From NCBI GenBank assembly GCA_051362555.1, contig CM120640.1, positions 44,556,788 to 44,620,787 of the forward strand: DNA of 64,000 nucleotides. The letters are read 5' to 3'. The position numbers were made by a program, and so were the translations under genes. This DNA comes from Lingula anatina (Eukaryota; Animalia; Brachiopoda). Shown piece after piece: positions 23,559 through 41,410 of the stretch; the stretch's first letter is position 1, and the number at the start of each line of letters is the position of its first letter. The notes below the pieces were generated by a model that saw nothing but the letters and a program-made list of their open reading frames with translations, had not been told where the DNA came from and searched no databases.

Positions 23559-26500
23559 TCATACACTGTATGGTTTCACTAGATGTTCAGAAAACTGGCG
23601 AATATCATCAGCACCCCTCACTTCATGTTCCAGTAATGGAAGTTTGGTAACATTAAAGTCCTCATACAAGTCTTCAATCTAAAATGTATAAAGTGTGATG
23701 TGTGATGTATCATTACCTTTAGTATCATCATATAGTGATTAAAAACCATAAAACCTAAGGCAAGCTTTCATCACATTAAAAAAATCTACTGAATTATTTT
23801 GCCGACTTGAAAGTAATGGTCATCATGTTGTTTTAACAGTTAAAACATGACTGTGAAAACAAAATACATGGAAATGTGTCTTTTCTACTACAGTTTTCAC
23901 CAACCTGATCCAGATACTTGGATTGTATCCGATGTCTGGCAGCACACATTTTGCAGGGTTTTTCATTTTTGGGGAGGAACATTAGCTGGTTGACAACTAT
24001 GTTATGAGTGTCAATGTTCATTTTAGTAAGTTCTTGAACTAGCCTCTCTGTTTCATACAGTGATAGGAATTCAGCTATACACACACACACAAATGTAGTT
24101 TGGTCCTAAAAAAGAAAAAAAAAATGAAATCATTTTTGTCATGGATAGTATTTTGATTATGAGAGAGGGAAACATAAGGGGCAAAACAAGTTTACAATAT
24201 AAAAAAATGAGATATAATTATAAATAAATTACATCTTTATTAAATCTAGTTGCATTAACTTTGATTTTTAAAGTCAATCATAAATAAACAGACAATAAAA
24301 ATTAAGAAAGAAACATAAACAGTTACATATAAAATATATCCAGGATCATATGGATCAAATAATCTGTCAACAAAGTGACATTTACTTAATTCTTACATTT
24401 ATGAGAAAACTTCAACTTCCACTAACCATATATGTTTTACATAAACTTTCTGGAAGTCGGGTGACTAAATCAATTATGGTCAATATCCAATCCAAGTGAA
24501 TTCTAGTGTGAACATGGTTCCTTATACAAGATTACCATTGCAACCTTGGAGTGCTCAAAATTCTTAGATCTATTGTTAAACAAGTTATTCACAGCAGAAT
24601 AACAAACAAAAAAAAAATCAGAACTGGAAAGTGGAACGAGTAGCACAAGTGACCATGTGCTGAGTTTGCAAACACTGCTCAAAATCTACTTACTGGATTC
24701 CTAAACTGTTCATTAACTTGTTTTATGATGGGTAGTGTCTCTTCTAGTCTTGTGGTCATCTGTTCTGCATTCATATCCTGCATGCCCATCACACCTGCCA
24801 TCTGTTTATACATAATATTTGCAATTATGAAGCATAAAACATATAAATTTACAAGCAACTGAGATCTAATAAATGCGGTACACATAATTTTGCATATCAT
24901 TTGCATTCCAAAATAAAAAGCAATCAGTTGATGTTTATATGAGTGACCATATTTCAAAGTACTTGGAAAGTTATGGATGTAAGCAAAACTGCTTTTAAGT
25001 CTATTTTGAATACATTTTTAGGGTAAAGTTATCACATTTGTCAGAACTTAAAAACAAACTTGTTCAACTTTGTAAATCATAACATATACTTTCTTCACAT
25101 AAGCTCATACCATGAACCAACAACACTCGTTTCTTTGTCAAAAATTTCTAGACCATGACTTCATGAATGTTGTAGTCTTTTAATGATGAAAAAATAGAAA
25201 TTCAGAGATACAATGCAGCATGGACTTTCACAGACCTGTGAGATAAAGGGTGCAAACTGGCTTTTTATCTTAAGAAGTTTTCCCAGCCCCTTCTCCACCA
25301 TAGAGGGAAAGGATAACAGACGCAGTGTGTGTCCTGTAGGAGCCGTATCAAATATCACCACAGAAAAATTCATACTTTGAACCAACCTGAAACAAATAAA
25401 TAAATAAGTAAATAAATAAAAATAAATAAACAATCACAGAAAGAAAAGCATTTCATTATAGTGTCATCATTGTTTGTGTATGTTCTGCAGTTGTCTTTTT
25501 CTCTTTTTAAAGAATGTACCAACTCTAAAGTGTAATATATATATATATTTTTTATAAGTTAATCTCTTTTTAGTAAAATATCTATTGAACACAGCAAATA
25601 TTACATGGATAAGTTAAACTTAACTTCAACAACATTTAAACATAAAGACTGATAAAAGCAACCAAATGTCCACAATTAAGTATATTTTTTTTTTGCAGAA
25701 TAAGGTATCAGCTCCAATGTCATAGCCAGGGACTATTTATTTTTTGGGGTTGTTTGAGTAAATCAGTTTAACACGTAAATCTGAGATAGTTAATATGGAC
25801 AATTGATAAAACTTGACTACAGAAAAGGTAGCCTTACCTCATAACTTCAGCATAGCTCATGGCTTCATCTATACCAGGAAAAGCACCTAACAGCTCCTGA
25901 ATGACACCTTTGCCAACTGCCAACACATCTGAAATTAAACTCCTCTCACTGAGTGAAGCTACATAAGACAAGGTTATAAATAATCATTATTTCAGAATTG
26001 TGAGAAATACAGATGGGGGTGTGAATTGTCTTCATTATTTAATACCACTCTACATATGTCAAAATTCTGAGTGTCTTCTTTCAAAGGACGATTGTTTCCT
26101 TCTCTGAAGTTTTGCAATGATAGCACAATCAAACTGACTAACTGTTCAGCTATATCACTACAGATCATACAGAGCATTTTGAAGATTTTTTTTCTTTCTC
26201 AAACTTAGGTTAACAAATAAACCTTAAAATTTTATATTTTGCACCATAACATCTTTCTTAGAGACTGTATGAAATTGCCTAAAAGTTTATCTTTTCCACA
26301 ACAGTATTTATTCTGATAAACTTCCATTTTTCTCGCATCAATAATTTTAATTTGTTCACCCATACAGTATCCTCAAATTAAAGGGTCCGAAACAGAGCGT
26401 GATAAAACAAAGCTCTTGTAAGCTAGAAATCGGTCTAATATGTTGGTTCCTGATCTCTCAGACATATATTTGTCCATTTAGTGTTTGTTATCTGCTAATT

Positions 26501-29500
26501 TATTACCTTGTTGTCCTTCAAAGTAGTCATCTGGTAAATCTGCCATACCAACATTTGGGTCAATTTCCTAAAAAAATTAATAATAAAATATGAAATCATC
26601 AATGAAATGGAGTCTGTAAACATCTTCCAATTTGACAATTTTATTTTTGCAACCTCCCAAGCATGTGTAAAAATTAATCATTAATTAAATGTCTTTATTA
26701 AAAACATGCACCTACAAACATGCACATTATTCCTGGTGCAAAAGGGCAAAGCTGAAAAAAAACTCTATGGGGTAATAGCTTATACCTTACTGGTTGGTTA
26801 TCATTAGTTTCAACATTTTATTTTCAATGTTTCATTTTTTCCTCATCAATGGATGATGTCATATCCTCATAAAAACCAAAATTGATACATTAATACATTA
26901 CATAATATACATATGAGATAACTGAGAGTGAAATCACATAATGAAAGCTTAATTACTCATAATTACTTCTATGTCATAACTAAACAGACTAGTTTCATCA
27001 TTTACAGATATGAAATTATGCATCATATTATGGCTGATTACAGCTTCAACATTACCAATTTCTTAAAAATAGATAATGAGCAGTAAGTAATAAACATCAA
27101 GTGCAAGATAGCTACAGTAGCTGAATGTCATTTTCTGGAAATGATCATGATCAAAAACAGGACAAAAAAATTTCACGTGATGTATGGCATCAGCATAACT
27201 TAATTATCATGAAATAAATCAAGGAGCAAAAGGCAGATTTCTGTGAAACTAATGTTAAGAGCTATTAATGGACTATTCCTGCACAACAGGAAGATTGGCA
27301 CTAGTCATTTTGATTATGATCATCATCATCATAAATGAATGAAAAGAGTGACTGATCATGATTTTTTTCTTTTTTCAAGGCTGCTCCTTGGTATAAAAGA
27401 AGAGACAAACACTGGTGCCACATATGCTGAGACCGTGTGATACCAAGATGCACATCAGCCTGGTCTTTGTGTTACTTGGGATAGCTATCCTGGGATATGC
27501 TGCAGGTAAGAAGAAATCATGACATGTTATCAAACTGGGCTACTGTAGGGACCATTGAAAAAAATTCTTACATTTCACATCCCATCATCTTAGTATACAG
27601 TGTTGGAAATGGTCAAGACTAAATCATGTTGCAACCAACCTAAAAACCCTAACCAGATTCAAATAGGAAACAACTGGAAGAAATTCTCTCACACTATAGC
27701 TGAAGATCACAAAAATCACCAACACATTTAAAAAAGCCCAATACTGAAAACCATGTCCCTTAGTTTCTATTTTTTTAATAAAAATTTTCTCATCAATGAC
27801 ACATGGTTTCATGACTCACAAATATAATAACTGTAGGACTCAAATATGAGAAGTACTGCTTGATTTCTTTTTATTTCTAGGCTATCCTGGGGAGAGCAAT
27901 GAAGACTGCCATGATCGTTGTTACAATGGCATCACTAGAAACAGAAAGAAATTTATGTCAGGGTATGTTCTTGGAGGAGTGTGCCGCTGCACCAACAATT
28001 GCTATTGGGCATTGCGGTATTACAGTGGCATGTCTCCTGATGAAGCCTGTCAGTCTTTTTGCCGACACAAATACCACAGCAGAGCAACTGGGGAATGTGA
28101 AAATGATAAACTTTGTCACTGTGACCGGGTAAGAATTCTGCTCCGAGCAATGTTTTTTTCATTTCATAAAACTGCAATTTAAAATGAATATCATTTACAT
28201 GTATATCTATATAATACATTTTCTACTTATTTGGCTTTGGGCTTTGGTGCTTCCAAATTTTCAGATCATATCTTCACCTCTTTTTGTTTATCTGGAGATA
28301 CTTCAATATCTGCTCTTGTATATAAGCTTATAGAAAGGATTTATATAAAGGATTACGCGTAATGCTAGAATTATCCTTCTTTTTCCAACAGAGTGGCCGT
28401 GGCTGAACATCCTGGTCTGAACTGAATGGTCATCCTGACAATGGATTCCATAGCTGATAATTCAAATCTGAATCTTGAACTCATTCTTCTTTAGAAGTAA
28501 TAAAAATATGGTATACATCATCATCAACATCTATTCTGTCTAATTTACACTAATATCTATTACAAACAATGAAAAAAGACAAACTTTCTTTACTGAAATT
28601 TTCTATTCACATTGACAGCAAATAAGAAAGTGAGTTCTAATTCACCTCAAACCCCTTTCCTCCTTGCATTAAAAAAAAAAAGATGACAATTAAACACCTT
28701 ATTTTAGAAAAATACTATTGTGAGAAAAGACTTACCATAGCAAACAGGTTAGTGAATCCTTTAACTTTTGTTGGCACCTTAGAGAATTTCTGGTCAAAAG
28801 CATCTGATATGTTGTGAGCTGGATCTGTGGATATGACTAGAACACTCTCTCTGATTTTGGACAACTGTACTGCAAGGCTACAGCTTAAAAAATACCAAAT
28901 ATCTATAAATACTCATACAGGCGATAAAAAGATTGCTATTAATTATAATTTAGTGTGGATGTCTGGACTCACAATACCTCAAAATACCTGAAAAATAAAT
29001 TTCTTTACATAAAATAAAAATGTTTTGTATTAAAATTTGGCTTTTATGAAGACTTTTCAACATTTGGATAATACAAACTTCGTGTTTAAGTGGGCTCATC
29101 GTCTGTATCAAATACTCTTATTAAACTCAAAGGATGGTATATAAATGGCATAAAGGGGAAATAATATAAGTCATATTTCATTATGCAGATCTCAGCAAAC
29201 TCTCATTTCACTCTTGGTGAAATATCAATAATAACTAACTAGCATCTGATGCACTAAAACTCTCACTGCTTCTACTAATACAATAATTCAGTTAGATTTA
29301 AGCACAACCCTGACTCAAACACAATTATATATCATTCTTCAGTACCACCAATAAAACAAAAAAATAATTTATCCAAAAGAAAAAGCACCACTAAAACAAG
29401 TCTATACTACAGTATGAGTATACGAGTTGTAGAGGTCATACAAAAGAGGCATTTTGGCCCAATTCTGAGAATTTCACCCATCGGATTTACAAACAAAAGA

Positions 29501-30619
29501 AGAGGTAGGTGTACCATGTTCGAGTTGTATCTGATGTCTGGTTCTTTGGATTCTTATAGTTTATTTTTTCACGATTCTGTTCTAAAACTTCACTAGCTTA
29601 CTTTATTTCAGTCTCTATGGTCCGTGTATGGGGGGGGGGGGGGAGAATGAAACTGTCATTTTTTTCCTTTTCATTTCATAAATGGTCAAAATAAAATGAA
29701 AAATCTGTGTATCTCAAATTTCCTTTATCTTTAACAAAAAAAAAAAAAAGAAAAATGAGATAATTGTTTGTTTTTCTATTTTACTATGATAAACAAACAA
29801 ACAAACAAAAAAACAAAAAAAATGACAGATATCCTGACGATGATAGGAAATGGAAATATCCACTATTTTTCAATATCAAGGGGGTAAAATATATTAGAAT
29901 ACACGTTATTTTCTCCCTCTGTGAAAAAATGAAAGAATTTTTTAAATGTTCATTTTATCAATTTAAAATGGAAAAAGTTTCCCTGATTTTCATTTTGGAA
30001 ATAAATATGGTAAAACAAAAGTACATACATATATACATAACTGTTATGCTTTAATCACTAGCAGTAGTTAAAAAGTAGAAGTAGTAGACACTTCAGTAGT
30101 AGTAAACATTGTATCATTATTTAATTTGTTCTGTCAGTCAACAACTACTCAGTTTAACTTAAGTATATTGTATTGTATTGTACTCCCCCCCCCCCCCCCC
30201 CCCCCCCCCAATACACGGACCCTCTATGGGGGTATGTGGCGATATTATGAAATTAGTTTAAAATACTTCACTGAGTTTGATTGTTTTTATTTGAGTTTTG
30301 ATAAACTAGTATGGTGTTCCGATGTCATTTCTGTGGTTTAATTTACCAATCAAGGTGACAGCTGAGCATTGTGACCAAACCAAACCAAAGCAAAGGGCAC
30401 TAAAACAGTCAAGAGTAACACGTCATTCATCTAAACACATCCATTGCATACTATCTTACTGGGCATTTTGACAAAGTCAGTATCTACAACAAATACCAAC
30501 CTGCATGTTGTCTTTCCCACGCCACCTTTTCCTCCGACAAATATCCATCTCAGCGTTTTCTGTTCAAGGATATTTTGCACACTGCTTTCTAGGGTGTCAT
30601 GCTCCATAGCAGTCGCCAT
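23559..30619 (-). CDS. ASNA1: ATPase ASNA1 / GET3 (TRC40), tail-anchored protein targeting factor
   Basis: 8 exons (minus): 30619-30501, 28883-28736, 26567-26507, 25928-25838, 25386-25236, 24801-24694, 24105-23905, 23678-23559 (TGA). Motifs [58 protein letters not shown] and the CKMC zinc pair. Confidence 0.97.
27392..27399 (+). promoter_or_regulatory. TATA box of nested cysteine-rich peptide gene
   Basis: GTATAAAAG about 55 bp upstream of the ATG at 27448. Confidence 0.6.
27448..28406 (+). CDS. Secreted 106-aa cysteine-rich peptide with tandem CS-alpha-beta defensin-like modules, nested antisense in ASNA1 intron 2
   Basis: Exons 27448-27505 (signal peptide, phase-1 GTAAG donor), 27881-28128 and 28392-28406 (TGA). 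Product [106 protein letters not shown] with 10 Cys. TATA box upstream and AATAAA at 28499-28504. Confidence 0.85.
29619..30221. mobile_element. MITE with short TIRs extended by G/C homopolymer runs, 6-bp TSD
   Basis: GGTCCGTGTAT+G14 on the left, C25+AATACACGGACC on the right. CTCTAT flanks at 29613-29618 and 30222-30227. Confidence 0.75.
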
Positions 30620-30841
30620 TCTTAAACAGAGCTATAAATCCATTTTTGAAAAAAATTAATTCTTTAGTCCCATGAAAACACGTTGACAGTATTGTATATT
30701 TTACTATTTTAAATTTAAATCTAGTGTATTTTGAATAAACATATAAAATGACATATTCAACTTGGAAATAAACCATAGTATTTTAAATAAAAACTACAGT
30801 ACGTTATTAGCACTAGCTTTGTATTAAAGACAAGTGCCAAG
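30620..30841. promoter_or_regulatory. Bidirectional promoter ASNA1/HECTD3
   Basis: Only 222 bp separate the divergent start codons. Confidence 0.75.
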
Positions 30842-33800
30842 ATGAGTTTGGATCTTCCGCGTCGTCGACTGGGAAGGATTCGATGTTTACAGCAATGTAT
30901 TTTGTGCTTTAAAGAAAAAAGACGGCTTCCAGAGTCTCTGTGCTATGTACCAGCTCGTATAGAATTTAAGGCAACCGGCAGTTTTAAAGTATATGCCTTC
31001 GAAAAACCAAGCAAGCAAAGTGGCAAAGTGACAGAAATTTTGTGTGAAAGTGACACTAGAATTGTTGGTTCTGGAGAAGAATTTTGTAATTCAGAAGGAC
31101 AGTGGATAAAGATAATTGAGGTTTGTTATTGGTGAGAAATGATGGTGCAAATTAATTCCGAGAGATATAGATTCAAATAGGGCAAAATAATTCATGTTGC
31201 ATGCAGTACTGTAGGCCACGGTGGTTTCTTTTCAGTGCAGACCACATATATTTCCAATGACTCATCACTCTTTGGTTTATCATATGTTGATCTGTTCCTG
31301 TTACATAAATATTATTTACTGCTGCCATAACAGATATTACTTTTAGGCTTGTATTTGAAAGCGTACTCATGATACATTACATGTAATGTTACAAATCTGA
31401 TATTTAAGAAGTTCACTTGTAGTATTGTGCTGTGGAAAAATGTTCTTTGATTTTTATAAACAAGACACTGTAAGAAATGCCATGCTTTGCCTGTGTTCCC
31501 CACACTCGCGTGCACAGGCATAATCCAATGTAAGGGTTTTCTGTCTTGCTTATACAGGAGGATGACATTTAGGATGAAATTTCTAATGTTAGCACTCTTA
31601 TTTACTGTTTCTGTTTAGTGCTTATGTGCTAATGTATGTAAGATATACATGTAAGTGCACATAACTAAAATGACTGTCAGTTAGAGGATAAAACTTCGTG
31701 CTAGATCTGGTGGCATTTAGGAGTGTCTTAGTTTGGTAGAAAAAAACATCTATAGCAAAAACAGTATCAAAATGAAAACTGTGCTATTTTTTAAATACAT
31801 ATTTGTCACTTCTTGAAAGTATGTCTGTAATGTTGAGTGTGCATTTTGTTTATTTTAACTACAGTATTACAGTAAAAAATCCAGAGATAAAAGAGAGACA
31901 TTAGAAAAGGAAGCATGGGCCTTGCTATTTAATAATGCCAGTTCAAATGAAGAGGAACCTTCACTTATACAAGTGGAACAGGAATACACAAAGCCAACAC
32001 CAAAAGAGTTAATATTTGGATGCAAGCCAAAAGTTATAGACAGGTAAGATGACTGTGGAATACTTGAAAGTATAGTAGCATTGATAGGTCCCATGTTTTC
32101 GGGGATCAATATTTAAGAACTAAAGGATATCACATTTAACTTTATTTGAAAGACCATCATAATTAAAAACATAATTATTATTTTAATTAATGTATCTAAA
32201 TTGACTTTTTTGATGCAAAATTAATTGTAAAAAAATTAGTTTTTACCAGCATTCTAGTTGATTTAGATTTTCAATCCCAAATATCATTTATATTTTTATT
32301 TGCTATTCTATTAACAAAATTTCTGTATATATACACAGTATTATTAATCTCTTTTTGTTGATTTTAGGTGGGAAGATGTAGTAGAAGACAGTTATTCTTT
32401 GAGGTGTGGCCGTGTCACAGAAGTTGCACCTCCAGATATGGAGGCTGTTAAAAGACTACAAACAATTCCCCCAAATTGGTCTATAGACTATGATGAAGAG
32501 TTAGTGAAATTTTTAACAGAACACGCTGAACCTGATAATGACCACTTGGGCAGTGTACGGAATTATGTAGAATCCATTGAAGTCTCTTCTTTCTGTGTAA
32601 GTTACTGGATGCTGATAGTTTAGGAAAGCACTGCCAAGATACAATTTCTCAAATTTGTTATGAGTCAATTGATGATATTTGAATGGTATATAGTCTGTGA
32701 TTAAACCTGGCACACTGTATAGTAATTAAGAATCTTTATGAAAAATTTTACCACAAGTAATTTCTCGGTCCATGCTGTAGGATTGATTCACAAAGAATCT
32801 GAGTTAGTGAAGTTTATTTTATGACTGTGTTACTTCGTATATATATTTAATTCTCTAAATATTATGTTATTGATCATACTATTGATTTCCCTTCTTAGGA
32901 TGATGATGGCTGCAATAATTTAACCGATGGAGATTCAGACACATTTTGGGAGAGTGATGGTAACCAAGGGCAGCATTGGATACGACTTAAAATGAAAAAA
33001 GGAACTGTGATTAAGTTAGTTTCCTTTTCAATCGTATTAGTGAAACCTTTGAAAAGATTTAAATAGGAGTTATTTACATGTACAAAATAGAGACATATTT
33101 CTCGTGGTTTCTTCAAATAAAGATTAGTTTTGTCTTTAGAGAGTCCTGAGGTTTGTTTGTTTGTTTATCTATTTGTTTATTTAATTTTTTCTTTATTTCA
33201 GAAAACTTTTATTAACTGTTGATGGCAGAGATGATAACTATATGCCCTACCATATCATAGTGATGGGAGGAGAAGGGGACAATCTTAGTAAACTTGAAGA
33301 TATACACCTGGATCAGTAAGTGTGATGATAACCAATTACCTTACTGTACTGAATCAGACAGTAAGATTTGAATTAAGAAGGGAGGAAAGCAAGTAAAATT
33401 TAAAAAAAACCTAAACACTGTATATAGCAATGCCACTTTCAAGTATGTTAAATTACTTTTTTACTAGTATACTAGTAATCACTACAGTGCAGCTTTTGGT
33501 TTGAGGATATAAAATTACTGATTTAAACTTATTGTGCCTGTCTTTTCTTGCAGGAATATGAATGATATGAGTGATGTGTGTGTTTTAGAAAATATGCAGG
33601 AGCATTATCCCATCATCGAGATCAGGATAAAGGAATGCAAAGGTGAATATGATCTGTTATCTTATGTAAAGAAAAACATATAGAAAAACGCGATCAGGAT
33701 AAAGGAATAAACAGACCGAAATGCGCCAGAATTGTCACCAGTGATGCTCTCAAGCAAATAGAAGAACACTTAACACTGTGACTATGTCAGTTCATTGCTA

Positions 33801-36800: not shown

Positions 36801-39800
36801 TGAAATTGAGACTAAGCTATTTTGAAAAAAAGATTTGCGCTAAAGCAAATGAGATTTGCTCATAATGATTTTGAATTTAATAATTTAATATACAATTCTG
36901 CTAAAAATCTATGTTAAATTATTTACCTTTTCATTTTGACATCTTATTTTGAGAAATGTTTTAATTAGAGCAATCAAGACTGCCTGTAATTTTTGACACT
37001 TAGGACATCAAAACTATTCTATTTTGATAAGATAAAGGTTATTTGTGTTCAAGGTCCGTGTATTAGAGACAATGGAGACACTGGACCAAGAGACGTTTGA
37101 GGCTCACTTTGGTGAAGACAGGACATGGACCACAGTGCTTAGTGATGGGACACCACTACCTTTAAAAAGTGCCGATTCTGACTCTGCAGTGCAATATGAA
37201 GACAGAGTGGAGTACATTAAACTGGTGCAAGAAGCCAGGATGAATGAATGTGAAGAACAGGTAAGTCAACACGACATTGAGTTATTTCTTTTTCTGTCCA
37301 ATTCCATGGATTTGTTTTGTAGATAAGAAGTTGACACCTGCTGGAATAACTCTACTTAAGCCAAATCACTGACTTTTACTAAGTCTGTGTTAAAATGTCA
37401 AAGAATACAAATATATATATTTTTTTAGAAAGAAGAAAAGGCTAATGTGAACTTTGGTAGGTAATAGATATTTGTATAGTCTACTGTGGAAGTTGTCTAT
37501 TATTATGCTAGGCTGTGACAGAAGCTGTTGAAAGCCAGCTTTTTTTTCTTTTTTCTTTTTTTTTTGGGGGGGGGGGGGGGGATATGGCTGAACAAGTATG
37601 AACATGGCAAATGTTTCTCAGTTGTGCTTTGCTTTTTTTTAGTATGTGGGAATGCAGTCAAGTTCAAAATGTGATTTAACTCAAAGAATAAAATGAAATG
37701 AAAATGAAATGAAATAAAATGAAAAATGATTTAATATATAAATTTTGTTTGAGAAAATGTTGGAATTTCTGGCCTTTTGAAATGTTGAGCAATTAACTCA
37801 AAACAGCAGATGGATATGTGAAAACAACATATAATTATAGAAATAAAAAATGGCTCAAACTAATTTATTAGCTGATTTCTTTGATTTTCTGTTCAGTGTG
37901 ACAGCAAAAATAATAACTAATACACAGGCTATCAGACCCAGTTCAAGAAAGTTTAGAAAGCTCAACTCTGACCAAGAAGCCATGTCTTTTCCACCATCAT
38001 CTTTTTCATATATAACAACCACATTCTTCTCTATTTCATCTTCCTTACTATGACTAGTTTGTATGTGAGACCACACTTGCTTCATTATGTAGTTTTCCTT
38101 TCCTCTGTAGTCAAAATCTGTAATTCCTATCATTATGGGACTAGTCAAATACTTTGAATCCATAAAGTTTTTCATTAAAGAGGGGGTATTTCCAATGCCA
38201 GCAAAAGCTTTATAACTATCTAAAAAGGTAAAATTGAGCTTAGCTGCCAATATGCCAACATAGACATCATCCATGAATAAATAAGGTGTCTGTAGTGACA
38301 TAGAAAACAAGGCTTTGGCTGTTGACAGGCTGACAATATATGCAGTCCCTGAACAGTACGATGGGAATGCATTGCTCTTGTATTCCTCCTTAGTTAAACC
38401 ATACTTTGTTTGCCGTGATCTGTGCACCCTAGTACAGCAGGGATAGAGGTAGCAGAGCTTGAAATGCTGCATGCCAGGTCCAGAATGCTCTATAACATAC
38501 GGAACCAGCTTGTACATGTCTATCACTATTTGGTCATCAGTGACCATGACATTCTGCGCATTACTGCAGTAGGTCTGTGCCCATTTGAAAATCCCCATCA
38601 CTTTAGTGGTGAGATTGCGAAAGTCTTCAACAAAATCTTCTTGCGCAATGTCCTTGTATTTACGATGCTCCCTCTCTATGGCTCTTTGAGTGTGAACATT
38701 TTTAGGTGTGGCAAAAAAGAAGACCACCACTACATTGAAATTAGAGTTTAAACCCTTAGCACCCCAGGTTTTCCTGATCACAGTTCTTGTGTCTATATGT
38801 GGAAAATGTGTCTTGACTGCTATGAGGAGAACTATATCTCTGTACCTGGAACATATATCTGTATTCCTGGTGAAGGTATAGGGATGAGGGTTACAGTTTC
38901 TTGGTGCATCCCAGAACCTTCCAGGTATGGGAGAGTCTTTTGGTCTTGGAACTGGTTTTATGTGTGTGTTTGTCCCTTTTTCCATGTCGTTGTCTTCCAC
39001 TGAGATCACACTGACAGCTGAGAGACAAAAAAAAAAGTGAATCGATAATTATTTGTTCGCATAAGGCTTTTTATCATGGTGATTATTTCCAAGAAACATT
39101 TTCTAGCCAGGGATGTACATGCCTAGTGGGCAGTTTAAATGAAATGGTTTAAAGATAATTGAAAGATAATTTATTTTAAGGTTATACGTTTGATTATCCT
39201 TTACTACATAAACATTTCTAAAATAACTGTAGTTCCTCCCCCCCCCAAAAAAAAAATAAATAAATAAACAAAATAACATTTCCTTAGACCATCGAATGAT
39301 GTGTATGACCATTAAAAAGAAATTGGTATTCAGAAAGGCATGGTAATTTTCAAAGGCCATACACATGTAATAAAAGGGGGAAGTAATGAATGGTGTTTTA
39401 TTTAAATTGTGCTCTCATATCATATATACTTTAAAAAGCTGCAGCTCTTTTTTACATGTGATTGACCAGAAAAGCCTAACATAGACACAAAATTATAGAT
39501 TAGGCATGTAACTTGCTTTCATTACAGTAGCATCATTTAAATGAGGAACTGCATATAAGACCCAGAAACAAGGCAGACTTGAAAGGTGTAGAATAGATCA
39601 GATTATCTAATGTTCATTGTGGAAAACATTCTATGCCATATTATGCCCATGCCTGCTTTTAAGTATACAATCATACCTAGTAACAACAGGTGTGCAGCCC
39701 TAATCATGCCATCACTGCCTATGTGTACCATCATGATGCATACACCTCCATTTCACAGGTGGGAATAGGTCAAGGTCACCATGCCAGGTGCTCAGTGCTG

Positions 39801-41410
39801 CCATCTGGGCAGGTAAAAATAGGTCAACAAAAGGGCAGTCAGAAAACTAGTTGTTTATACAGGAGTCAGTTATAGTGTTGTGCAGTACAAAGAAATAGTT
39901 TTGTTTGTGGAATGAGATAATTTGACAACAGCAGCAGAGCACAGCACGTGAAAAATCAAAACAGAAATTGTTGTATTGAATAAGTATTTAAATCTTATAA
40001 AGTTGACTGTTTGGATCATCTTATTATTACAGTGGAATTACTAGATACAACATCAAAGTAATCACAAATGTTTCTTTAGGTTATCTGCATTTTATGATAT
40101 TTGCACTTTATTGAGTACTTTTCAGTAAGTAGTAAATGTTATTCCTCAATGAAATTTGGTAAACACACAAAAAGCTTTTATTGTGTTATATAATGTATGT
40201 TTTAGGTAGCAGCTCTGAGGGAAGGTTTGTTGAGTGTAGTGCCCCAGGCTGTGCTAGATCTGTTAACATGGCAAGAGTTGGAAAAGCGGATATGTGGAGA
40301 CCCTGAAATCACTGTGGAGGCTCTCAGGAAAACTAGTGAGTAAAACTGTCACTGTGTCATATCAACTTCTGTATGTGTTTAATAAAGGCAATCAAAACTT
40401 GTATGAGTGAATGAGTGTTTTATTGTATGTTCATATTAAATTTCTTTGACTTAATGGGAATGGAGGCAGAACACTTTGAATACGTTTTTGTGGTTTGAAA
40501 TACTTCAGTTGTTTCCTGAAATACAGGGAAAGTTTTTACTGAAAAACATCTTATCAGAACATTTTCTATTATTTGGATGACAGATTCAACAGCAGAACAC
40601 CTGTGATCTATGACATTTCATCTGTTTTCAGCTCACTATGAAGATTTAGAACAAAATGACTCTAGAGTGAAGTATCTGTGGGAAGCCCTGGGAAATTTCT
40701 CAAATGAAGACAGAAGTAGATTTCTGAGATTTGTGACAGGCAGGCGGAGGCTACCAGCTCCACTCTATGTCTGCCCAGATAAAGGGTAAAATGAATATAT
40801 GTATTGATTATTGTAATGCTTTGTTTGCATTAGGTCTGTGTAAAATGAACAAGAATAGTTGGAGAATAGTTGAGAAGAAAGACACAGTGAAATGTTATGA
40901 ATCGTGTTTGATTTAACCAAATATACAATGAGTGGTAAAGCCTATGCATTATTACTATGTTTAAATATTTTTAAGTAATTCAACTTGTCTGTTTTGCTTC
41001 TCTTTACCCAATGTTGAATACTTGTTATTTTTTACAGTGAAGCTGTAGATGGTTTGCCAGAATCTTCAACTTGCTCAAATACTCTCTATTTGCCAAATTA
41101 CTCCAGGTAAAATGACTGGTTCCTCATTAGATGATTTGTGCATGCATTTTTATTGTGCAATAGAGAGTAATCTTGAACTGAAAGTAGACAATATTTCAGG
41201 CAAAAATTGTTTAATCACTTTACTGTAAATATTCAGCAGCTTGTGAAATGTACTTAGGTTCTTTAAAAGGTTTAAATTGTAATTTTTCTAAAGTTAAGGA
41301 TAATATTCTTTATTTATCTCCTTAGTGCAAAAATTGCCGAAGAGAAGCTGAGATACGCATCATATAACTGTGTGGCCATTGATACAGATATGAGCCCTTG
41401 GGATGAGTGA
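30842..41410 (+). CDS. HECTD3: E3 ubiquitin-protein ligase HECTD3 (DOC/APC10 + HECT domains)
   Basis: Approximate exons: 30842-31120, 31865-32043, 32368-32596, 32899-33014, 33202-33315, 33553-33642, 33833-33998, 34677-34758, 34949-35025, 35381-35539, 35917-36085, 36325-36448, 36642-36731, 37054-37260, 40206-40336, 40631-40785, 41038-41106, 41326-41410. Motifs [42 protein letters not shown], catalytic [14 protein letters not shown], and C-terminus [15 protein letters not shown]. Confidence 0.95.
37855..39734 (-). CDS. GT31-family beta-1,3-galactosyltransferase-like protein nested antisense in a HECTD3 intron
   Basis: Exon 1 39734(or 39707)-39677 with a phase-1 GTATG donor; exon 2 39017-37855. 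GT31 motifs [66 protein letters not shown]. It lies in HECTD3 intron 37261-40205, with a candidate minus-strand TATAAA at 39854-39859. Confidence 0.88.

Follow-up and report, generated by a model that had tools for sequence, protein, structure and literature searches.

A spliced gene nested antisense in a putative ASNA1 intron of Lingula anatina is predicted to encode a two-module CS-alpha-beta peptide

The gene, its transcript and its closest described counterparts

Tarr 2016 (PMC5116183) defines the cysteine-stabilised helix (CSH) motif of peptides with the cysteine-stabilised alpha-beta fold (CS-alpha-beta), the third bridge, and the four-cysteine peptide AdDLP. Tandem defensins have been described as nasonin-2 and nasonin-6 of Nasonia (PMC2853521), the fungal pochlasin2 (PMC4165938) and MtDef5 of Medicago (PMC5700942). 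Here we describe a plus-strand gene in a 64,000-nucleotide stretch of the genome of the brachiopod Lingula anatina (hereafter the window; GenBank assembly GCA_051362555.1, contig CM120640.1, positions 44,556,788 to 44,620,787), whose 106-residue product carries ten cysteines. The gene is transcribed, spliced and nested antisense within an intron of a putative ASNA1, and its product, predicted to fold as two fused CS-alpha-beta modules, is likely a secreted host-defence peptide, a reading that we hold with moderate confidence. Its three coding exons join into one open frame, with the following features (positions are those of the window).

27392..27399, + strand: TATA-box-like element TATAAAAG, a putative promoter element from its sequence
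27424..27426, + strand: upstream in-frame ATG, start of the 114-residue RefSeq form, 32 nt past the TATA start, with C at -3
27448..27505, + strand: coding exon 1, predicted signal peptide (residues 1-19 and the first base of Gly20), from sequence, hydropathy and RNA depth
27506..27880, + strand: intron 1, 375 nt, phase 1, GT..AG, from spliced reads
27881..28128, + strand: coding exon 2, nearly the whole mature peptide with all 10 Cys, from sequence and RNA depth in 7 of 8 runs
27883..27999, + strand: module 1 (residues 21-59), C-x3-C-x20-CxC without GxC, with a basic RNRKK loop and then a hydrophobic hairpin, from sequence and structure model
28000..28128, + strand: module 2 (residues 60-102), C-x15-C-x3-C-x9-GxC-x5-CxC, n-loop 15, GEC at the place of GxC, from sequence, structure model and structural matches
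28129..28391, + strand: intron 2, 263 nt, phase 0, GT..AG, from sequence and the RefSeq model
28392..28406, + strand: coding exon 3, 15 nt, encoding SGRG and the stop, from sequence, preceded by TTCCAACAG
28499..28504, + strand: AATAAA, candidate polyadenylation signal, from sequence

The TATA box, exons, phase-1 intron, 15-nt last coding exon and AATAAA named in the original prediction are all present in the sequence as it had stated. Exon 1, of 58 nt, ends CAG/GTAAGA in phase 1, while exon 2 is preceded by TTTCTAG and ends at the phase-0 donor CGG/GTAAGA. The G+C content of exons 1 and 2 is 46-47%, against 27-33% for the introns and flanks. Translation is favoured to start at 27448 rather than at 27424, because the upstream ATG sits approximately where the cap site is expected from TATA spacing and has C at -3, whereas the ATG at 27448 has A at -3 and thus the stronger context. 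The N-terminus is hydrophobic (Kyte-Doolittle window up to 3.2), and from the (-3,-1) rule we infer that the signal peptide is cut after Gly20.

Transcription was examined in eight of nine raw-read runs from the same species (individual runs are called X1, X2 and so on), each sampled to about 6-30%. Intron 1 was spliced GT..AG on the plus strand in seven reads from two of the eight runs (two in X4 and five in X7); no such joint was listed for the remaining six runs. The plus-strand spliced transcript on which the original prediction depended was thus observed; of its two junctions, 27505/27881 was found, whereas 28128/28392 was listed in none of the eight runs at a listing threshold of at least three reads. 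Read depth was zero at 28306-28372 in all eight runs and returned at 28373-28439 in four. In X4, depth over ASNA1 came entirely from pairs with the first mate on the plus strand and depth over the peptide gene entirely from pairs with the first mate on the minus strand, which fits transcription from opposite strands. The exon-2 depths of X5 are identical to those of X4, and these runs may not be independent; X2 had no reads on the peptide gene, and the one pair in X1 points the way of ASNA1. X7, X8 and X9 contain reads that retain intron sequence, which may be pre-mRNA of either gene. At the borders of the gene, exonic RNA depth climbs in the 27368-27434 bin near the TATA-like element (two runs have reads further upstream too), drops near the AATAAA at 28499 in X7 and X8, and extends to about 28660 in X9.

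The gene had been presented as hidden and as one that annotation pipelines would probably miss. This is refuted by RefSeq XP_013403052.1 (UniRef100_A0A1S3IXX4; LOC106168513 isoform X1, Lingula anatina, “uncharacterized”, 114 aa), which is the same gene with the same exon chain and begins eight codons earlier, at the ATG at 27424; the 106-residue form has no record of its own in the protein collection. The label “isoform X1” implies another isoform of LOC106168513, and none was found as a separate protein. XP_013403052.1 forms a cluster of one and was the sole true match among 5.8 billion proteins; no true homolog was found there or among 1.84 billion representatives. Against the latter, HMMER returned three matches at E ≤ 0.001, namely the gene itself and two repeat artefacts (P0003, 3683 aa, and P0004, 521 aa), which were rejected as summed weak scores over tandem repeats, the matched repeat of P0003 having no cysteine. 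None of 27 candidates among longer proteins was accepted, and none of 60 pattern matches in metagenome contigs was confirmed. In Pfam, the precursor matched nothing under E 1 (Somatomedin_B at E 3.5 and Defensin_like at E 2.2 were both far below their cut-offs), and no macin or mytilin model matched. Among PDB sequences there was no match for whole exon 2 or for module 1, and the best for module 2 was AtD90 (E 4.3). A close match to a described family, which would have removed the novelty, was found neither in Pfam, nor among PDB sequences, nor in the large protein sets. At the sequence level the peptide is an orphan in the collections searched.

The cysteines stand at residues 29, 33, 54, 56, 60, 76, 80, 92, 98 and 100, with spacings of 3, 20, 1, 3, 15, 3, 11, 5 and 1; both module patterns of the original prediction and its count of ten were confirmed. 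The modules are separated by three residues without a dibasic site, and the peptide has a net charge of about +3 (13 K/R against 10 D/E) and a pI of 8.4. Chance occurrence was assessed in 60 dinucleotide shuffles of the window, with patterns that were defined after the peptide had been seen. The window holds one instance of the double CxxxC...CxC pattern and one of the six-cysteine GxC pattern, and neither arose in any of the 60 shuffles. The single CxxxC...CxC pattern was found in 34/60, so the module 1 pattern alone would not beat chance.

Module 2 shares with the six-cysteine insect-type defensins (sapecin, lucifensin) and the short scorpion toxins the positions C2-C3-C4-C6-C8-C9 of the array of Tarr 2016, with GxC at C6, and its n-loop of 15 falls within the range of 4-16 given there (PMC5116183). 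Lucifensin aligns to it over 40 residues with a root-mean-square deviation (rmsd) of 2.4. Unlike those peptides, module 2 has a second module ahead of it in the same chain and exon, lacks an acidic propeptide and is close to neutral in charge (+1 plus 3 His); identity is about 25%, without a significant sequence match. A classical insect-type defensin has a single six-cysteine mature domain, whereas there are ten cysteines and two CSH motifs here. A KCXN motif with a short n-loop is tied to channel toxicity (Tarr 2016, PMC5116183); in place of this scorpion-type Kv toxin pattern, the peptide has GECEN and an n-loop of 15.

Module 1 has a four-cysteine arrangement (C29-x3-C33-x20-C54-x-C56, with GYV in the first strand and no third pair). 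In this it is like the myxobacterial AdDLP (PMC5116183), which has CxxxC and CxC alone, without GxC, and like the centipede 2ds-CSab peptides SsTx and U-SLPTX15-Sm2a (PMC7232367), which have no GxC. These are, however, single-domain peptides, the second cysteine pair of SsTx is C46 and C53 rather than CxC, and no sequence similarity to them was detected. Module 1 had been said to have lost both partners of the C1-C4 bridge; the cysteine pattern agrees, while loss is only one reading of its history, since four-cysteine modules without GxC have precedents in AdDLP and the 2ds-CSab peptides.

With the tandem defensins the peptide shares the presence of several units in one secreted chain, here a predicted one, and, with nasonins, units without processing signals and a phase-1 intron after the signal peptide. 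Nasonin-6 has one exon per domain, whereas both Lingula modules lie in one exon; MtDef5 has two full domains of 50 aa joined by a 7-aa linker, whereas the Lingula modules are mutually unlike, with four and six cysteines, and stand three residues apart. The macins (theromacin, mytimacin), mollusc defensins, mytilins and myticins are likewise secreted CS-alpha-beta peptides of lophotrochozoans, and theromacin also has ten cysteines. They contain one CxxxC...CxC core with extra bridges (PMC5116183, PMC7168163), C1-C7 and C5-C10 in the macins, whereas the Lingula peptide contains two cores. The eight-cysteine array with C5 and C10 of the mollusc defensins, mytilins, myticins and nematode ABFs does not apply either, as there is no cysteine between C80 and C92 or after C100, and the arrays given for nematode subfamilies (bioRxiv 2022.09.26.507570) also differ. 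By its cysteine pattern module 2 fits the superfamily, and the whole peptide falls outside the insect defensin, macin, mytilin and Kv-toxin families as defined.

Predicted fold of the two modules

AlphaFold2 (AF2) was applied to exon 2 alone (82 aa) as a single sequence. The model had a predicted local distance difference test score (pLDDT) of 75 and a predicted template modelling score (pTM) of 0.58, and contained, in exon-2 numbering, a helix at 6-15, strands at 26-30 and 33-39, helices at 40-46 and 52-64, and strands at 69-73 and 77-81. Both CxxxC motifs fall in predicted helices and both CxC motifs in strands, and the two helix-plus-hairpin modules that the original prediction had called for are thus present in the model.

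In module 2 (pLDDT 76 when modelled alone), C76-x3-C80 lies in a predicted helix and C98-x-C100 in the last strand, as in a CSH motif, and C60 and G90-E-C92 would form the third pair. VIA, which re-ranked the 349 chains found by Foldseek, gave a list of 50 rows for this module, of which 43 have a title that identifies a defensin, scorpion toxin, thionin or brazzein, three have one without a family name and four are herpesvirus gB. The best row listed has a Z of 4.4 and an rmsd of 1.9 over 38 aligned residues; noxiustoxin (Z 4.4), margatoxin (4.0) and lucifensin (3.9) are regarded as tied. Lucifensin (template modelling score, TM, 0.61/0.70) has the best TM by query, 0.61, among the Foldseek matches listed. 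When the whole model was used in a wide search, defensins and AmmTx3 aligned on residues 31-82. Because all Z values are below 5, the assignment of module 2 rests on its cysteine array together with consistent weak matches. No macin, mytilin or MGD-1 structure was among the VIA rows listed, which excludes nothing.

Module 1 forms a block with a pLDDT of 69-77, in which a helix holds C29 and C33 and a strand holds C54 and C56. Its single listed match to a CS-alpha-beta structure is termicin, which superposes on residues 3-41 with an rmsd of 1.7 Å over 35/36 residues (Z 2.9, rank 23). Comparison with defensin structures gave matches for module 2, at low Z, and one match for module 1, whose assignment is based on its cysteine array, the predicted secondary structure and this structural row. 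The two modules show no similarity to each other beyond chance (1536/2000 shuffles with fixed cysteines scored as high), and an internal duplication of one module was undetectable by this test.

The strand of the model that holds the CxC of module 1 continues into Cys60, and model residue 35 is where margatoxin and noxiustoxin start to align. This suggests that a strand is common to both modules. We tentatively propose, as a possibility with somewhat less than even chances, a brachiopod-restricted, interlocked and linker-less 4+6 fold in which the last strand of module 1 would also be the first of module 2, giving a rigid double CS-alpha-beta unit. No match to such a double fold was found among 48,161 PDB representatives. 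If true, one animal exon would hold both the two-disulfide state that has been proposed as ancestral and the one with three disulfides; the fold would be a new, compact disulfide scaffold and would offer a natural way to test the contribution of the third disulfide and of GxC to the CS-alpha-beta fold.

Features from the ESM Atlas pointed to knottin/defensin-type clusters in both searches (best scores 0.75 and 0.87). The nearest cluster (0.87) consists of 63 nematode proteins, about 136 aa long, that bear an automatic knottin name and share no Pfam family; it may be another multi-module CS-alpha-beta family.

Proposed function, alternatives and novelty

In the proposed mechanism, removal of the signal peptide after Gly20 would release an 86-residue chain with five proposed disulfides, 29-54 and 33-56 in module 1 and 60-92, 76-98 and 80-100 in module 2. 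The terminal Gly of SGRG is a possible amidation donor and might be converted to an amide. Because the three-residue gap has no dibasic site, both modules would work as a single unit. Contact with anionic microbial membranes would fall to module 1, which would bind them and dip into them by its RNRKK loop and hydrophobic YVLGGV hairpin, and module 2 would provide a scaffold of the insect-defensin type, by analogy with the two domains of the plant defensin MtDef5.

Several points weigh against this host-defence function or against the fold on which it is built. A six-cysteine array cannot separate a toxin from an antimicrobial peptide (Tarr 2016, PMC5116183), and a charge of +3 is weak for an antimicrobial peptide; that of the mytilins is +7 to +10 (PMC7168163). 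Two of the four-cysteine precedents are described as lacking activity, AdDLP against bacteria and fungi (PMC5116183) and the centipede Sm2a against bacteria (PMC7232367). No paralogue family was found in the protein collections, and the lack of a homolog leaves the peptide without evidence from conservation, selection or family. In the wide search with the whole model, the best rows listed were unrelated alpha/beta proteins (Z 3.7 or less), and most rows above termicin were unrelated. Foldseek found nothing at E ≤ 0.001 against the PDB and viral models, and no VIA Z of at least 5 arose in any search. The ESM Atlas scores lie below the 0.9 bar and are a lead only, and the Atlas's own model has a pTM of 0.43. 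Finally, no kappa-B-like site was matched in the intron, and read depth on the peptide gene was low, at or below that of ASNA1, in the runs sampled.

Some of these observations would also suit a secreted CS-alpha-beta peptide with a non-immune task: it might inhibit proteases, serve as a ligand in signalling or gamete recognition, or form part of the mantle or shell matrix. We regard this as possible, at perhaps one chance in a few. The low charge, the low expression in the eight runs and the missing kappa-B-like match fit such a role, as does the failure to find a paralogue family of the kind that many immune peptides form, and the structural matches of module 2 include brazzein and other non-antimicrobial members. 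However, defence is the role of most animal CS-alpha-beta peptides that have been characterised (Tarr 2016, PMC5116183), and module 2 carries the six-cysteine array of the insect defensins. A toxin-like peptide that acts on ion channels to deter predators or fouling animals is still less probable. The top VIA rows listed for module 2 are short scorpion K-channel toxins (tied with lucifensin, as noted), and the rows of the wide search include, at Z 2.8-2.9, Sm2a of the 2ds-CSab family and FS50, a NaV antagonist of fleas. The two-disulfide SsTx blocks Kv7 (PMC7232367). Against this, similarity of fold cannot separate toxins from defensins (PMC5116183). Brachiopods are not known to have a venom apparatus. 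The original prediction had offered an antimicrobial or toxin-like peptide, and its toxin half is weakened because the KCXN motif and the short n-loop of Tarr's criterion (PMC5116183) are absent.

Doubt about the fold of module 1 is a question separate from function. The peptide could instead be a six-cysteine defensin with a cysteine-containing N-terminal extension, or its cysteines could pair across modules in another fold, which we consider unlikely. The single structural row, the absence of a Pfam or PDB sequence match, the chance-level similarity to module 2, the frequency of the lone pattern in shuffles and the pTM of 0.58 all leave room for it; on the other hand, the AF2 model places both cysteine pairs of module 1 in the helix and strand given above, and termicin superposes on nearly all of its own length. 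Least probable by far is a non-functional or decaying frame, transcribed as noise within an active intron. Low depth, the intron-containing reads of X7, X8 and X9 and the missing homolog could be read in this way, but the gene has its own canonical splice sites, opposite in direction to those of ASNA1 and used in reads, an intact frame, an even and patterned set of cysteines and exons that stand out in G+C, and the variants of other animals spare every cysteine and introduce no stop. The host-defence peptide is the favoured reading.

With regard to novelty, four-cysteine modules, tandem defensins and nested antisense genes each have precedents, and no principle is changed. The original prediction had suggested a possibly undescribed 4+6-cysteine double architecture. 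The 4+6 arrangement is present, with its fold predicted, and the gene is already in databases; no account of the linker-less fusion or of this peptide was found in the literature searched, which did not take in Gerdol et al. 2018 on Lingula immunity. That study, which reportedly may include bi-domain defensin-like peptides from Lingula, or its supplements could remove the novelty of the peptide. Antimicrobial peptides of brachiopods are barely known. A compilation of 390 lophotrochozoan peptides (PMC10414684) has four brachiopod rows, all of them for big defensins, and Lingula is not represented. The present analysis provides an uncharacterised RefSeq protein with a predicted fold and a testable function.

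Nesting in ASNA1, surroundings and variation

The host gene is on the minus strand, and the following parts of it bear on the nesting.

26568..28735, - strand: ASNA1/GET3 intron 2, 2168 nt, host of the peptide gene; loose ends of RNA reads at 28735 resume in exon 3, and the acceptor AG ends at 26568
28736..28883, - strand: ASNA1 exon 2, from sequence and RNA depth
30501..30619, - strand: ASNA1 coding exon 1, where loose ends of RNA reads at 28885 resume

Exon 3 runs from 26567 downward. We take the host to be a putative ASNA1/GET3-type ATPase, following the original prediction and the GKGGVGKTT and STDPAHN motifs. The loose ends connect exon 2 with exon 1 on one side and exon 3 on the other, which sets intron 2 at 26568-28735; the whole peptide gene lies within it in antisense, and the predicted nesting is thus borne out by the RNA and by the strand of the splice sites. 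It is most likely incidental to the function of the peptide. Nesting is not exceptional here, because a second intron-nested antisense gene lies about 10 kb away: an open frame of 397 codons at 37855-39048 (- strand) encodes a Galactosyl_T domain (PF01762, E 2.6e-37) and, close to the C-terminus, a hydrophobic segment. It is antisense to the plus-strand exons on either side of it, at about 37036-37326 and 40607-40789, which presumably encode the HECT domain of a HECTD3-type ligase.

ASNA1 (30619, - strand) and the HECTD3-like gene (about 30833, + strand) apparently start head to head, about 200 nt apart, an arrangement that suggests a shared bidirectional promoter. ASNA1 intron 1 contains an inverted repeat of 25 nt (29619-29643 and 30197-30221, 96% complementary, 553 nt apart) that ends in G and C runs and is possibly a small non-autonomous element. 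Around the peptide gene no ends of mobile elements were found, just short A/T-rich chance repeats, and a scan of 24000-33000 with Rfam gave no match.

Variants listed in other animals comprise L10F, A19T, S68R and one silent change. Hypervariability or positive selection of the peptide, considered from the variants in X7-X9, was rejected as unshown: two amino-acid-changing sites in ASNA1 exon 2 also differ in X7-X9, and the animals may therefore simply be divergent, with no excess divergence of the peptide shown. At 27502-27513, four of four X9 reads are changed at the end of exon 1 (A19T, with altered bases immediately ahead of the donor) and continue into intron 1 without being spliced; this may reflect a divergent allele in pre-mRNA or a poorly splicing allele. 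At 28026, X9 has reads with at least nine further differences. The amino-acid-changing differences in ASNA1 exon 2, at 28743 and 28753, occur in X4, X5 and X7-X9. The sequenced animals may belong to divergent populations; alternatively, a paralogue of the peptide gene may be present.

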